A DNA stretch of 64,000 bases, taken from sequence record PQ511149.1; one strand, written 5' to 3'. Of the stretch, positions 3,443 through 10,130 are shown in pieces (the stretch's first letter is position 1; every line of letters starts with the position of its first letter). Position numbers and translations under genes: made by a program. The notes beneath the pieces were generated by a model. It had not been told where the DNA came from. It did not search any database and was given only the letters and a program-made list of their open reading frames with translations. This DNA is from Escherichia phage NHEP11.

Positions 3443-3541
3443 TGTATTTTTCCATAGGCATCATTATATTTTACTCATGTTTAAAAGATAAGACGATTAT
3501 ATACTAAGGGTTATACAGCGTTTAAAACTTTAAACAGGCTC

Positions 3542-4090
3542 TTAACGAGCCCATTTGATAATTTCTGTAATCAAATTATTACGTTCGCTTGCATTAAATC
3601 CTATAACTTTGTTAGCACCATCATGATTAAGTAATTGATATGTTTGGATTTTGTTATGAATTGCAAACTCTTCAAAATGTGAAATGACTGTATTAAAACC
3701 GAATGAAGACAAAGTAATAAGGTCGTCTTCAAAACTTTCAGTCATTTCGTTACGTGTTAAAATAATTGTGAACACATCATGGTTTTGGCAAAGACGAACA
3801 TAATCCTGTTCATAAACATCAAGAACCGAGTCCGCATCTTGTCGAATACGTCCATAAACCCAGTTACTAATATATCCACGGTCTAACAGATAAATCTTAG
3901 TAGGGTCTAAATAATTCAACATCGTTTCGAAACAGCCAACTTCATTTCGAGACTTAACATCAAAACGTCCATCAACTGTTCGTTTAGGGAAATCAATTTT
4001 TACATATCTTTCACTAATTTCCATTATGTCATTAATGAAAGTTGTTTTACCAGCATTATCCGGGCCATCTACTAAAATAATTTTAGCCAT
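3542..4090 (-). CDS. P-loop NTPase, nucleoside/nucleotide-kinase-like
   Basis: 182 aa; Walker A GPDNAGKTT at N-terminus and a later LLDRGY motif, as in dNMP/thymidylate-kinase-type folds; sits where T4 has beta-gt. Confidence 0.6.
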   Translation of the reverse strand: MAKIILVDGPDNAGKTTFINDIMEISERYVKIDFPKRTVDGRFDVKSRNEVGCFETMLNYLDPTKIYLLDRGYISNWVYGRIRQDADSVLDVYEQDYVRLCQNHDVFTIILTRNEMTESFEDDLITLSSFGFNTVISHFEEFAIHNKIQTYQLLNHDGANKVIGFNASERNNLITEIIKWAR

Positions 4091-4091
4091 T

Positions 4092-4991
4092 TTATTCCTC
4101 GATTACGACATCTTCGTATTTAGGTATATTATACGGTGAAGAAATTAAAGCATTAAAGTAGATGAACTCACCAAGACCTGGATGGAATACTTCTTCAGGA
4201 TTTTCGAAATATTGAATCTTCGGCCGTCCTTTAAGAATTTGATAGTACTCAGTTTTAGTTGGATTAAAAATTCGAATCAGCGCTTCTTCAGGATACTTAT
4301 TTCTGTCGAAACTATTATTTGGATCGGTTATATAAAGCGGTTGACCTAATTGAATTGCACATTCAACCACTTGTTCAAAACGATAGCATGGGTCACTAAT
4401 TCGAAATGGATGAAAAATACCATCTAGATGAATAGGAGCCAAATCACCTACAAAACGCTGCATGATGGAAGGACGTATAACTTTCTGGGTTACGATAATC
4501 TTATTACCATCTGCACCAGCGTTAACCAGCACTTCTTTTTGACGTTCATTCAACACAGTAGTTTGAAGTGAACGATTAACCGACAACATATCGGTTTTTA
4601 AGAATTCGTCAATATAAAAACGTGGTTTATTAGGGTCTGCAGTGATATTGAAATTGAATTCTACGTCAAAAGTGCCGTCATATCCAGTGATATCTGTGAT
4701 TAGAAAATCACAATCATAATAATCAATTAATGAATCAACCACAAATTCATTTTCAGACCAGAAATATTTACGAGTGTTATACGCGTTATCTTTATACCAT
4801 AATGGAACAAACTTAAATTCTGGGAAAAGACGTTCACATTCTTTAATATCAGATGCATTACGTGGATATGTAATCACATCACCTGGATTAGCACGGTGCA
4901 AATGAAGTTGGAAGTTTCCATCCTTAAGGATAGCATACTGTCCAGTTTCATAAGACCGCATACTCAAGATAGGTGCGCGGAAAATAGCCAT
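4092..4991 (-). CDS. hypothetical protein; candidate DNA-modification transferase (by position only)
   Basis: 299 aa; ATG start overlaps the stop of the upstream hydroxymethylase gene (coupled); no domain recognised. Confidence 0.5.
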   Translation of the reverse strand: MAIFRAPILSMRSYETGQYAILKDGNFQLHLHRANPGDVITYPRNASDIKECERLFPEFKFVPLWYKDNAYNTRKYFWSENEFVVDSLIDYYDCDFLITDITGYDGTFDVEFNFNITADPNKPRFYIDEFLKTDMLSVNRSLQTTVLNERQKEVLVNAGADGNKIIVTQKVIRPSIMQRFVGDLAPIHLDGIFHPFRISDPCYRFEQVVECAIQLGQPLYITDPNNSFDRNKYPEEALIRIFNPTKTEYYQILKGRPKIQYFENPEEVFHPGLGEFIYFNALISSPYNIPKYEDVVIEE

Positions 4992-5707
4992 TAGTCAAGG
5001 AATCCTTTAACATAATCAAAATCACGTTCAAACACATGGGCACTTACCATGGTATGAGTATAATCACCAACTTCTACACCACATTCTTTAGCGATATAAT
5101 GAAGTAATTTTCCTTGGAGATAAAAATCCAACTGCATAACAACAGCACAGTTCTGAGAACGCATATGACAGTGGGTATAAAGCTTACCATCACGAATATA
5201 ATAAGTCACTGAGTCAGTACATGGATATTCAAGTGATTCGTCCGAATCAAGCAAAGCCTGATCTGAACTTTCAAGAATTTGGAACACAACTCTTCGTGAA
5301 TTAGGTTTCTCTTTAAGTTCTTTGAGAAGAGCTGGTAACTGAGCCGCAATTCGTGGACCGTAGAAAGTGTTGAAGTTTGCAGGCAAAGCGTCTGATTTAG
5401 GTTTAGAAATAAATTTAGCAACGTTAGGATATGCCTTAAACGCTTCTTCTGCATCAGTACCACCAGAAATCATAAACTTCCAGAAGTCTTCGGCATATTC
5501 ATAAGAGATGCGGTTAATACGTGGGTCGGTCATTTTGAATGATGATGGAGTATCAACAACTACTGTCATAGACCCAATTTCATTACAACGTCCAATACGA
5601 GAATCAGTTACGAATTCTGGGTTTTCTAAAATTTCACGATTGACAGCTTTAAATGCGGATTGAAAATCTGCGGCTTTAATATATTTCATTGTGTTATGTT
5701 TTCCCAT
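4991..5707 (-). CDS. 42: thymidylate-synthase-family pyrimidine hydroxymethylase (dCMP hydroxymethylase-like)
   Basis: 238 aa; PCTDSVTYYIRD...HMRSQN...QLDFY resembles the T4 gp42 / thymidylate synthase active-site region (Cys nucleophile, MRS motif). Confidence 0.8.
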   Translation of the reverse strand: MGKHNTMKYIKAADFQSAFKAVNREILENPEFVTDSRIGRCNEIGSMTVVVDTPSSFKMTDPRINRISYEYAEDFWKFMISGGTDAEEAFKAYPNVAKFISKPKSDALPANFNTFYGPRIAAQLPALLKELKEKPNSRRVVFQILESSDQALLDSDESLEYPCTDSVTYYIRDGKLYTHCHMRSQNCAVVMQLDFYLQGKLLHYIAKECGVEVGDYTHTMVSAHVFERDFDYVKGFLD

Positions 5708-9273: not shown

Positions 9274-9314
9274 GTTGTGGTCCTCATTGGTAAGTAGGAG
9301 TATTGTACACTATT

Positions 9315-9458
9315 CTAGTTAAAGCATTCATACTTTGCTTGTAGTCCAATCATAATCCATCCAATTACAAGTGTTGGAATCATTACTGGAGCCGTTAAGC
9401 TCCAGTAGATAGTCATGACAAGCATCAATAGTAAAAGTCCTATTGTTATTGCTTTCAT
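9315..9458 (-). CDS. small membrane protein (47 aa), below ORF-track threshold
   Basis: Hand translation MKAITIGLLLLMLVMTIYWSLTAPVMIPTLVIGWIMIGLQAKYECFN; ATG overlaps the SIS gene stop (ATGA); two hydrophobic segments. Confidence 0.4.
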   Translation of the reverse strand: MKAITIGLLLLMLVMTIYWSLTAPVMIPTLVIGWIMIGLQAKYECFN

Positions 9459-10090
9459 TGTTCGCCTCGTAACATGGCACCTAGTGCACCGCCAGGGTGG
9501 AACTTAAGGAAGTCATTAGAGGTAAATCCACGCTCAGACGAAAGGTTGATAGCAAAAGTATCGATAAGCGCTAACAACAATGTAGTGGACATAGTCGGAG
9601 CCAGAGAATTCTCATCAACCTCTACTGCGATGCCTGTACAGAAAGAGTAATCAAAAAGGGCTTCATTTTCTTGTGGAATGTCTGGGTTACAATGCAACAG
9701 AATCTGTTTGACGTTCGGACGAATCATTTTAAGATGCTTAGCCACGCCTATCATTTCTTCAGTTTTACCAGAACGACTAATATGAATCAACACATCATTA
9801 GGCGCAATGAATCCTGCATCACCGTGAGAATAATGCCCAGTGTTCAAGTACATACTCGGGATACCGAGTGAAGCAAATGTCTCAGAAGCTTTAGTTGCAA
9901 TATTAGCATTCTTACCAACACCTGTAATAATTACTCGGCTTTCATAATTACTAAGTCCCGGGCGTCGAAGAGTTTCTAGAATAGCATTATAACGAGCAGG
10001 GTTTTGACTAATTACTTTGGCCATAGCGGCCAAAGAAGAAGCTTGTTTTATGATTGCGTCAATAGCGATAGTAATAGGAGTAGTTTTCAT
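9455..10090 (-). CDS. SIS-domain sugar-phosphate isomerase, KdsD/GutQ-like (arabinose-5-phosphate isomerase-like, no CBS domains)
   Basis: 211 aa; GVGKNANIA...SHGDAGFI...ISRSGKTEE...LAPTMSTT...FHPGGALG aligns with the E. coli KdsD SIS domain as recalled. Confidence 0.8.
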   Translation of the reverse strand: MKTTPITIAIDAIIKQASSLAAMAKVISQNPARYNAILETLRRPGLSNYESRVIITGVGKNANIATKASETFASLGIPSMYLNTGHYSHGDAGFIAPNDVLIHISRSGKTEEMIGVAKHLKMIRPNVKQILLHCNPDIPQENEALFDYSFCTGIAVEVDENSLAPTMSTTLLLALIDTFAINLSSERGFTSNDFLKFHPGGALGAMLRGEQ

Positions 10091-10130
10091 ATTTCTCTCA
10101 TTTAATTAGTTTACCGTCCATGTCATTATA

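Follow-up and report, generated by a model that had tools for sequence, protein, structure and literature searches.

The interval between uvsX and gene 43 of Escherichia phage NHEP11 very likely encodes the published DNA modification system of RB69-type Mosigviruses, which places arabinose on 5-hydroxycytosine. The studied stretch spans positions 3443-10130 of a 64,000-nucleotide (nt) window, that is, the whole stretch of DNA analysed from sequence record PQ511149.1. Nine co-oriented minus-strand genes fill the interval, and the list of open reading frames (ORFs) gives a coding share of 96.1%. The cassette as such is already known (Thomas 2018; Mahler 2025; He 2026; Lee 2026). A P-loop protein, a protein of the U32 family and two small ORFs also belong to it. 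For the U32 protein, the chances are about even that it is an iron-sulphur (Fe-S), prephenate-dependent and O2-independent pyrimidine-C5 hydroxylase, which would offer a second route to 5-hydroxycytosine.

Correspondence with the RB69 cluster

The interval has 97.9% DNA identity to positions 23949-30638 of RB69. Identities of at least 95% were found to 154 phage records, all of them Mosigvirus-like coliphages or Shigella phages; vB_EcoM_TU01 is the closest record (98.3% DNA identity). The genes correspond one-to-one and in the same order to RB69 ORF045c-055c, with protein identities of 95-100%. Common to both phages are a D169N hydroxylase, a SIS isomerase, a fused nucleotidyltransferase/kinase, a HAD phosphatase, a GT-B-fold protein, the P-loop protein and the U32 protein. 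NHEP11 is a separate Mosigvirus isolate, and two ORFs with a frameshift in the RB69 record are intact in it. In the retrieved RB69 stretch, these genes (4149-5049 and 7646-9332) are each split by a frameshift, and the ORFs of 299 and 561 amino acids (aa) are whole in NHEP11. Resequencing of RB69 showed that ORF053c and ORF052c are one gene (PMC6024577), and the same holds for 046c and 047c (PMC13326640). The intact ORFs support the published view that the splits are sequencing errors.

RB69 DNA contains arabinose, and the phage has no known glucosyltransferase homologue. The module between polymerase and uvsX was proposed as the source of UDP-arabinose, and the base was named arabinosyl-5-hydroxymethylcytosine (ara-hmC) based on high-performance anion-exchange chromatography (HPAEC) and matrix-assisted laser desorption/ionisation (MALDI) data (PMC6024577). 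Later, gp45-gp55 were described as the cytosine-arabinosylation cluster of RB69. Table 1 of that study contains all of these genes except gp49 and gp54, the counterparts of the 79-aa and 47-aa ORFs of NHEP11. Liquid chromatography-mass spectrometry (LC-MS) and nuclear magnetic resonance (NMR) located the arabinose of RB69 DNA in an ether linkage straight to C5 via 5-hydroxycytosine (PMC13326640). Phage NP, another Mosigvirus, contains 5-ara-dC and 5-ara-ara-dC, and the ara-hmC assignment of 2018 was called erroneous (PMC13390438). A first-pass annotation of the NHEP11 sequence had named RB69 as a phage with arabinose in its DNA and had proposed the cassette as the genetic basis of this modification. 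RB69 was the right choice (PMC6024577, PMC13326640), and the DNA identity and one-to-one genes bear out the proposal.

Formation of the modified base

The ThyA homologue (238 aa) is encoded at 4991-5707, on the minus strand like all NHEP11 genes below, and corresponds to RB69 gp48. It matches the Pfam family Thymidylat_synt. In the numbering of E. coli ThyA, the alignment placed E143, C146, N169, D177 and A80 in the enzyme, a signature of D169N, N177D and L143E. T4 gp42 keeps D169 and W80, and E. coli ThyA has D169; the NHEP11 enzyme has an alanine at the folate-site W80. The D169N signature was defined for 5-hydroxy-dCMP synthases, and RB69 gp48 makes 5-hydroxy-dCMP in vivo with oxygen from 18O2 and with bound flavin mononucleotide (FMN) (PMC13326640). 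The NHEP11 enzyme is 98.7% identical to RB69 gp48, 25% identical to T4 gp42 and 98% identical to the chains of PDB 9IQC, 9IR2 and 9IQU, which are most likely the HY126 enzyme (unconfirmed).

Judged by these matches, the 238-aa protein is a flavin- and O2-dependent 5-hydroxy-dCMP synthase and not a dCMP hydroxymethylase. The first-pass annotation had called it a gp42-like hydroxymethylase. With 98.7% identity to gp48, N169 and only 25% identity to gp42, this label is therefore wrong in function; A80 and the match to 9IQC also identify a hydroxylase. The 5-hydroxymethylcytosine (5-hmC) acceptor of the same annotation has to be replaced by 5-hydroxycytosine, on which the arabinose sits (PMC13326640; PMC13390438). 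The enzyme would hydroxylate dCMP at C5 with flavin and O2. 5-Hydroxy-dCMP would then be phosphorylated and built into the DNA instead of dC, with participation of a gp1-type deoxynucleoside monophosphate (dNMP) kinase encoded outside the interval. The role of this kinase in phosphorylation and incorporation has been demonstrated (PMC13326640). A tblastn search with the ThyA homologue (E ≤ 1e-20) yielded 373 records, including 57 Acinetobacter and 20 Rhizobium phages. Tequatrovirus was absent from 60 rows taken at even steps down the ranking (0/60).

The glucosyl-hmC system of T4 occupies the same slot between uvsX and gene 43. In both systems, a modified dCMP from a ThyA-fold enzyme fully replaces C, and the last step moves a sugar from a UDP-sugar to a hydroxyl group. 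The T4 base is 5-hydroxymethylcytosine, formed by a folate enzyme with D169, whereas the NHEP11 base would be 5-hydroxycytosine, formed by a flavin/O2 enzyme with N169. As the arabinose donor is not a host metabolite, a three-enzyme pathway to UDP-arabinose is encoded by the phage itself. No cassette ORF matched a T4 glucosyltransferase family in Pfam or PHROG. Rhizobium phage RL38J1 (Pootjesviridae) has in common with NHEP11 a D169N ThyA-type synthase, DNA glycosyltransferases and a thymidylate-kinase-like gene. It differs by the use of hexoses, galactose and glucose, via UDP-galactopyranose mutase and has no arabinose genes.

Three metagenomic contigs selected by their GT-B gene (L023-L025) encode an N169 ThyA-type enzyme together with a Flavodoxin_2 gene and no U32 protein. 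In the T4-like contigs L024 (7739-8293) and L025 (7715-8275), the Flavodoxin_2 gene lies directly upstream of the N169 ThyA-type, GT-B and P-loop genes. In L023 (1605-2123), it lies about 5 kb upstream and adjoins the SIS isomerase gene. The product is NAD(P)H-flavin reductase-like and may specifically provide the O2-dependent hydroxylase with reduced flavin. The NHEP11 cassette has no such gene.

Synthesis of UDP-arabinose

By domain and family matches, the three-enzyme UDP-arabinose set is complete in NHEP11: an arabinose-5-phosphate (Ara-5-P) isomerase, the fused nucleotidyltransferase/kinase and the HAD phosphatase. The three proteins are 98.5-100% identical to their RB69 counterparts. The isomerase (9455-10090, 211 aa; RB69 ORF055c) consists of a SIS domain only (Pfam, 41.9 bits) and is of the KpsF/GutQ/KdsD type. 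The NCBIfam models kpsF (112.9 bits) and KdsD (107.7 bits) both matched under their equivalog cut-offs. It belongs to phrog_5670 (E 4e-116) and is 100% identical to the RB69 protein over residues 18-211. The 561-aa fusion protein (7588-9273; RB69 ORF53_52c, analogous to HY126 AfhE) is 99.4-99.5% identical to its RB69 counterpart. Pfam NTP_transferase covers residues 3-99, and weak matches to Fructosamin_kin, EcKL and RIO1 lie at residues 308-409. NCBIfam sugar-1-phosphate nucleotidyltransferase models, including MurU and HddC, and PDB 1JYK matched as well. By these matches, the protein is bifunctional, with a predicted N-terminal sugar-1-phosphate nucleotidyltransferase and a C-terminal kinase of the APH/choline-kinase-like type. 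The HAD-type phosphatase (7202-7603, 133 aa; RB69 ORF051c, analogous to HY126 AfhF) matches NCBIfam TIGR01689, the EcbF-BcbF capsule biosynthesis phosphatase, with 50.5 bits. It is nearly identical to PDB 9IQW (E 4e-87), and 1XPJ matched with E 1.5e-10.

The reactions of the HY126 enzymes are summarised in PMC13326640. According to this summary, the kinase domain converts Ara-5-P to arabinose-1,5-bisphosphate (Ara-1,5-P2), the HAD phosphatase yields arabinose-1-phosphate (Ara-1-P) and the nucleotidyltransferase domain forms UDP-arabinofuranose (UDP-Araf) from Ara-1-P and UTP (citing He 2026 and Mahler 2025). In NHEP11, the SIS isomerase would provide D-arabinose-5-phosphate from ribulose-5-phosphate. 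The kinase half of the 561-aa enzyme would form Ara-1,5-P2, the HAD phosphatase would strip the 5-phosphate and the nucleotidyltransferase half would activate Ara-1-P to UDP-arabinofuranose. The prediction of an NDP-D-arabinose donor from ribulose-5-phosphate in the first-pass annotation was correct, in line with the isomerase, kinase/nucleotidyltransferase and phosphatase matches and with PMC13326640. Its comparison with NDP-heptose synthesis also fits the order of isomerase, 1-kinase, 5-phosphatase and nucleotidyltransferase in the published summary (PMC13326640).

The logic in common with the NDP-heptose pathway and AmgK-MurU salvage comprises an isomerase, an anomeric kinase that forms a bisphosphate, a distal phosphatase and a nucleotidyltransferase. 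The HddC and MurU models matched weakly in the nucleotidyltransferase domain, and the kinase has an AmgK/APH-type fold. The NDP-heptose pathway differs in several respects. The phage isomerase is of the KdsD/KpsF type and not GmhA, the phage kinase is APH-like and not a GHMP or HldE enzyme, and the phage cassette has a pentose substrate and a DNA acceptor. In NCBIfam, no cassette protein reached the curated cut-offs of the NDP-heptose or AmgK/MurU families (HddC 22 bits vs 300), and a GHMP kinase was not found. The cassette works like the NDP-heptose pathway without being a member of it.

The 47-aa ORF (9315-9458; RB69 ORF054c, gp54) overlaps the isomerase gene by 4 nt and is translationally coupled to it. 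The product (MKAITIGLLLLMLVMTIYW...) is very hydrophobic, 100% identical in RB69 and a member of phrog_3610 (E 7e-27). Its counterpart in phage LC53 is annotated with transmembrane segments. The ORF is conserved and lies close to the place of imm in T4 and IME08. A similarity to the T4 42-imm intercistronic region is mentioned in the RB69 record.

Presumed transfer of arabinose to DNA

The first-pass annotation had listed the 299-aa protein (4092-4991; RB69 ORF046c+047c) as an unknown. At the sequence level this stands: the protein had no match in Pfam, NCBIfam or PDB, in the latter even at E ≤ 1. A fold was found by structure prediction. The AlphaFold2 model (pLDDT 95.2) has the two Rossmann domains of the GT-B fold. 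Foldseek aligned it with MshA (3C4Q, TMq 0.61), 7QSG (0.60) and 5ZE7 (0.58) and with UDP-GlcNAc 2-epimerases (E 8e-7). The model resembles retaining GT4 transferases and UDP-GlcNAc 2-epimerases. The GT-B gene shares 1 nt with the hydroxylase gene. The GT-B protein is presumed to be the first DNA arabinosyltransferase, which would put the first arabinose on the 5-hydroxyl group of 5-hydroxycytosine. A second transferase of the RB69 ORF003c type, encoded outside the window, may add the second arabinose. ORF003c lies about 21 kb away in RB69 and is thus expected beyond the 64-kb window; RB69 ORF003c, rIIA and gp39 had no tblastn match within it.

The P-loop protein (3542-4090, 182 aa; RB69 ORF045c) is thymidylate-kinase-like. 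It belongs to phrog_761, "thymidylate kinase" (E 2e-45), and TIGR00041 matched weakly over the P-loop. With a profile built from homologues, the P-loop gene was found to adjoin the GT-B gene in all 19 searched loci carrying GT-B. The RB69 counterpart was labelled "nucleotide kinase" by structure (PMC13326640).

A deoxypentose or xylose was tentatively suggested as the sugar of Thanatos (PMC12838424). The GT-B gene of Thanatos-2 (L003) is located at 5534-6436, and the report of UDP-xylose formation by the Thanatos homologue TH1_063 conflicts with an arabinosyltransferase role of the GT-B family.

Weighing the function of the cassette

Several points weigh against the cassette as an arabinosyl-5-hydroxycytosine system. 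Single purified glycosyltransferases were inactive on DNA with 5-hydroxycytosine (PMC13326640), and TH1_063 was reported to form UDP-xylose from UTP and xylose-1-phosphate in vitro (PMC12838424). The role of the RB69 isomerase was assigned by structure comparison (PMC13326640), and for NHEP11 we infer the conversion of ribulose-5-phosphate to D-arabinose-5-phosphate from family and structure. The P-loop protein is a predicted nucleotide kinase, on the basis of homology and structure. The biochemistry of He 2026 and Mahler 2025 is taken from the summary in PMC13326640, and the function of the cassette in this phage is read from its genes.

The ara-hmC model of Thomas 2018, also proposed in the first-pass annotation, has a gp42-type dCMP hydroxymethylase making 5-hmC and the cassette arabinosylating it. 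The modification was so named from the HPAEC and MALDI data (PMC6024577), many GenBank records annotate a dCMP hydroxymethylase and the thymidylate synthase fold with C146, D177 and E143 is kept as in hydroxymethylases. The direct C5-O-arabinose ether seen by NMR and LC-MS, the incorporation of 18O2 into the base and the bound FMN (PMC13326640) make this model very improbable, and a second laboratory considers the hmC assignment erroneous (PMC13390438). In NHEP11 itself, N169 stands in the place of the D169 of gp42 and W80 is replaced by alanine. The same sugar enzymes could also serve the host envelope by producing an arabinose or 3-deoxy-D-manno-octulosonate (KDO)-type sugar for the remodelling of capsule or lipopolysaccharide. 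KdsD/KpsF and the "capsule biosynthesis phosphatase" are indeed the closest cellular families, and several GenBank records use those names. Yet the arabinose is on the DNA of RB69 and of another Mosigvirus (PMC13326640, PMC13390438). The genes lie within a cluster for replication and nucleotide metabolism, operonically joined to the 5-hydroxy-dCMP synthase gene, and Pfam and NCBIfam searches detected no KDO-8-phosphate synthase or CMP-KDO synthetase in the cassette. An envelope function is extremely improbable.

The U32 protein

The U32 gene is located at 5985-7160 (391 aa; RB69 ORF050c, gp50). The mechanical ORF starts with GTG at 7160. The likely start is ATG at 7145, as homologues begin with MNTFK..., which gives 386 aa. 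The protein matches Pfam Peptidase_U32 (PF01136) with 42 bits vs the cut-off of 22.4 and has the TIM-barrel fold of the U32 family. Nine cysteines are invariant in 113 members of the subfamily. A 15-sequence MAFFT alignment placed C197, C214 and C238 (counted from the GTG start) on C169, C176 and C193 of UbiU. The conserved cysteines may ligate a [4Fe-4S] cluster, and the protein is a candidate Fe-S protein. "Cys-rich possibly U32-like", the wording of the first-pass annotation, was an apt description.

Characterised U32 systems perform O2-independent hydroxylations that depend on prephenate and Fe-S clusters: RlhA acts on rRNA, TrhP on tRNA (ho5U34) and UbiU/V on ubiquinone. Each runs beside an O2-dependent alternative (PMC5727448, PMC6599085, PMC10990095). 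The phage protein has in common with them a U32 domain above threshold, the U32 fold and cysteines matching three Fe-S ligands of UbiU. RlhA is required for the 5-hydroxyl group on a cytosine (ho5C2501 of 23S rRNA), the chemistry needed in the phage cassette (PMC5727448). The phage U32 protein and the ThyA-type enzyme mirror the pairs TrhP/TrhO and UbiUV/UbiIHF, in which the second partner reaches the identical product with O2. The phage subfamily differs by its distance, by 11 residues inserted into the U32 signature and by a C-terminal CX4CX3CX2C motif of its own. Its substrate would be a deoxynucleotide or DNA. A hidden Markov model (HMM) of the subfamily gave 15.1 bits for TrhP, 9.5 for RlhA, 6.2 for UbiU and -1.4 for UbiV of E. 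coli. Close kinship to any specific E. coli paralogue was rejected at these scores (≤ 15 bits). The NCBIfam UbiU model reached 18 bits vs a cut-off of 440, and PDB contained no sequence match even at E ≤ 1.

The U32 protein is at least about 80-82% identical in all 221 phage records carrying it, including Shewanella phage Thanatos. In those same phages, the kinase/nucleotidyltransferase is only 42-54% identical. Table 1 of PMC13326640 lists RB69 gp50 as "sugar or heterocycle reductase", with no discussion in the text. The Thanatos homologue TH1_065 was modelled without discussion (PMC12838424). Records of BASEL phages annotate the gene as "putative enzyme involved in UDP-arabinose biosynthesis". 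A literature search found nothing linking U32 proteins, chorismate mutase or prephenate to phage 5-hydroxycytosine; the idea of a U32 hydroxylase may already have been published.

Gene neighbourhood of U32

Chorismate mutase makes prephenate. A chorismate mutase gene lies between the U32 gene and the ThyA homologue in six genera, represented by LC53 (Winklervirus), PEi26 and CIP9 (Kanagawavirus), fHe-Yen9-01 (Tegunavirus), Proteus phage PM2 (Bragavirus) and Thanatos-2. The phage enzymes match CM_2 with 33-47 bits vs the Pfam cut-off of 27, and R8, R25, K36, E49 and Q75 are invariant in their profile. On metagenomic contig L007, the gene after U32 encodes a DAHP synthase (237 bits vs 63 for KDO8P synthase).

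In NHEP11, a 79-aa ORF (5749-5988; RB69 ORF049c, gp49) is found at this site. It overlaps the U32 gene by 4 nt, is translationally coupled to it and belongs to phrog_8601 (E 9e-50). An assignment as AroQ chorismate mutase (PF01817) was rejected: there was no Pfam match at E ≤ 10, the hhalign probability was 0.06% and HMM searches gave no match. In the alignment, R8, R25, K36, E49 and Q75 had no counterparts in the ORF. In Klebsiella phage Marfa (L016, 2510-4427), the ThyA-type gene follows directly after U32 with no ORF in between. The site behind U32 thus varies: six genera have chorismate mutase there, Mosigvirus has the unrelated 79-aa ORF and Marfavirus has no ORF at all. Homing-endonuclease genes were inserted at differing points of the cassette in LC53 (L002, 5352-5990), PEi26 (L019, 1852-2490) and PM2 (L017, 3714-4397). 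The insertion in PM2 parts the chorismate mutase gene from U32. As with segA in T4, mobile endonucleases have a hotspot in this module.

Acinetobacter phage DLP1 and the E. coli Dhakavirus IME08 have the isomerase, kinase/nucleotidyltransferase, phosphatase, N169 ThyA-type, GT-B and P-loop genes. HMM searches detected neither U32 nor chorismate mutase in the two cassettes. No Acinetobacter or Rhizobium phage was among the U32 matches, all of which were at least about 80% identical; the 57 Acinetobacter phages have the other genes of the cassette. Acinetobacter is an obligately aerobic host. A strict rule that U32 follows facultative anaerobes was rejected, as IME08 infects E. coli and has no U32.

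Among the 19 GT-B loci searched, five had the ThyA type only, eight had both, six had U32 only and none had neither; these counts carry a selection bias, as the loci were picked via the genes compared, and the phage clades are not independent samples. RB69 is a ninth case of both by annotation. U32 homologues with 50-58% identity occur in metagenomic phage contigs of the DNA polymerase (pol) III-alpha type, always among genes for nucleotide metabolism or replication; the analysis covered 7-8 kb on each side of the gene. Six of them (L007, L009, L010 and L026-L028) have the gene order P-loop, GT-B, U32, and HMM searches found no ThyA-fold ORF within this range. L007 has the isomerase and the kinase/nucleotidyltransferase, and L009 has TAGT and a UDP-galactopyranose mutase. 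Homologues of the isomerase or the kinase/nucleotidyltransferase were absent beside U32, GT-B and P-loop genes in L009, L010 and L026-L028.

Other contigs place U32 homologues in further nucleotide contexts. In L004 (7447-9086) and L008 (6504-8083), the gene adjoins those of a dCMP deaminase and a DNA pol III alpha fused to a uracil-DNA glycosylase (UDG). In L005 (8001-15428), it lies near genes for NT5C, a deoxynucleoside kinase, a nucleoside deoxyribosyltransferase-like protein and a radical SAM/SPASM protein; one more U32 paralogue, a divergent one, adjoins it as well. ThyX and a dCMP deaminase are encoded on L027 and L028, too. The contexts in L004, L005, L008, L027 and L028 hint at pathways for 5-hydroxy-uracil or other modified pyrimidines.

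A proposed role of U32 and its rivals

The U32 protein may act on the acceptor side and make the 5-hydroxyl group without O2 under conditions, such as those of the anoxic gut, in which the ThyA-type synthase with its need for flavin and O2 fails. The ThyA type and U32 of Mosigvirus would then form a dual aerobic/anaerobic system like TrhO/TrhP. In many uncultured phages, U32 would be the only route of 5-hydroxylation. The contigs with U32, GT-B and P-loop and without isomerase or kinase/nucleotidyltransferase homologues indicate that U32 tracks the acceptor side and not the sugar. Since the 79-aa ORF is not a chorismate mutase, prephenate for the NHEP11 enzyme would be supplied by PheA/TyrA of the host. 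Set against this role are the lack of a chorismate mutase in this window and the empty slot after U32 in Marfavirus. Dhakaviruses infect a facultative anaerobe and have no U32. The subfamily is remote from RlhA, TrhP, UbiU and UbiV (≤ 15 bits), and the U32 assignment itself is drawn from homology and structure.

The labels in Table 1 of PMC13326640 and in the BASEL records would place U32 in the sugar arm, as a sugar or heterocycle reductase or in another step of UDP-arabinose synthesis apart from the 5-hydroxyl group. The gene lies between those of the phosphatase and the hydroxylase, and with lower scores the TIM barrel matches many sugar enzymes, too. This placement is unlikely. The route from ribulose-5-phosphate to UDP-Araf is already fully covered by three enzymes in the summary of PMC13326640, and the cassettes of the Acinetobacter phage and the Dhakavirus have these three enzymes without U32. 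Conversely, L009, L010 and L026-L028 have U32 without isomerase or kinase/nucleotidyltransferase, and none of the characterised U32 members is a sugar enzyme (PMC5727448, PMC6599085, PMC10990095). These characterised hydroxylation systems act on tRNA, rRNA or quinones, which is in line with a protein that modifies host RNA or another non-DNA substrate like TrhP and RlhA and whose position in the cassette is incidental. Phages do carry tRNA-modifying genes. The protein might even be a true peptidase, as the U32 family was first described as collagenase-like. Such a role outside DNA modification is quite unlikely, given that all nine metagenomic contexts concern DNA replication or deoxynucleotides (DNA pol III alpha, dCMP deaminase, deoxynucleoside kinase, NT5C and UDG) and that the U32 gene overlaps or abuts the GT-B gene in six of the nine. 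The C-terminal DUF3656 region of RlhA is missing, and scores against E. coli TrhP, RlhA, UbiU and UbiV do not exceed 15 bits.

Implications

The modification helps protect the DNA from host nucleases and blocks many restriction enzymes, which explains the resistance of Mosigviruses. The cassette also explains why RB69 does not recombine with T4, and it is relevant for the choice and engineering of therapeutic coliphages. For the first-pass annotation, the correction concerns the base: a flavin/O2 enzyme forms 5-hydroxycytosine instead of hmC. A hydroxylase that needs O2 puts a gut phage at a disadvantage, and U32 is the obvious protein to consider for an anaerobic bypass. If U32 has this function, DNA precursors would join RNA and quinones as targets of prephenate-dependent hydroxylation. 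Glycosyl-5-hydroxypyrimidine DNA without a ThyA-type enzyme would characterise a class of uncultured pol III-alpha phages, and oxygen-dependent differences in the restriction sensitivity of phages would be expected.

Layout of the interval

The cassette is bounded by uvsX (2270-3442) and the gene 43 DNA polymerase (10131-12842), as given by the ORF list and the RB69 annotation. All ORFs named in the first-pass annotation were found on the minus strand between these two genes at their given positions, and Pfam, NCBIfam and PHROG searches backed its domain labels. The interval is expanded as described there, with 6.7 kb vs 3.6 kb in T4 (segA, beta-gt, 42, imm and imm.1). Every cassette ORF matches a PHROG family with E values of about 1e-27 or lower; the ORFs are therefore real genes and not chance ORFs.

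A scan of the interval for promoter-like sites showed no enrichment over shuffled sequences (24 vs 27.3±5.5), and terminators were not clearly above the shuffled expectation (6 vs 3.5±1.8). Four of the junctions between cassette genes overlap by 1-16 nt, and three of the four internal gaps are exactly 41 nt long. The gaps considered on the minus strand were 10091-10130, 9274-9314, 7161-7201, 5708-5748 and 3443-3541. A TATAAT hexamer is located shortly upstream of the next start codon in four of these five; gap 9274-9314 has only TACAAT. The gap pattern suggests four transcription or translation units, which group the isomerase with the 47-aa ORF, the kinase/nucleotidyltransferase with the HAD phosphatase, U32 with the 79-aa ORF and the ThyA-type enzyme with the GT-B and P-loop proteins.

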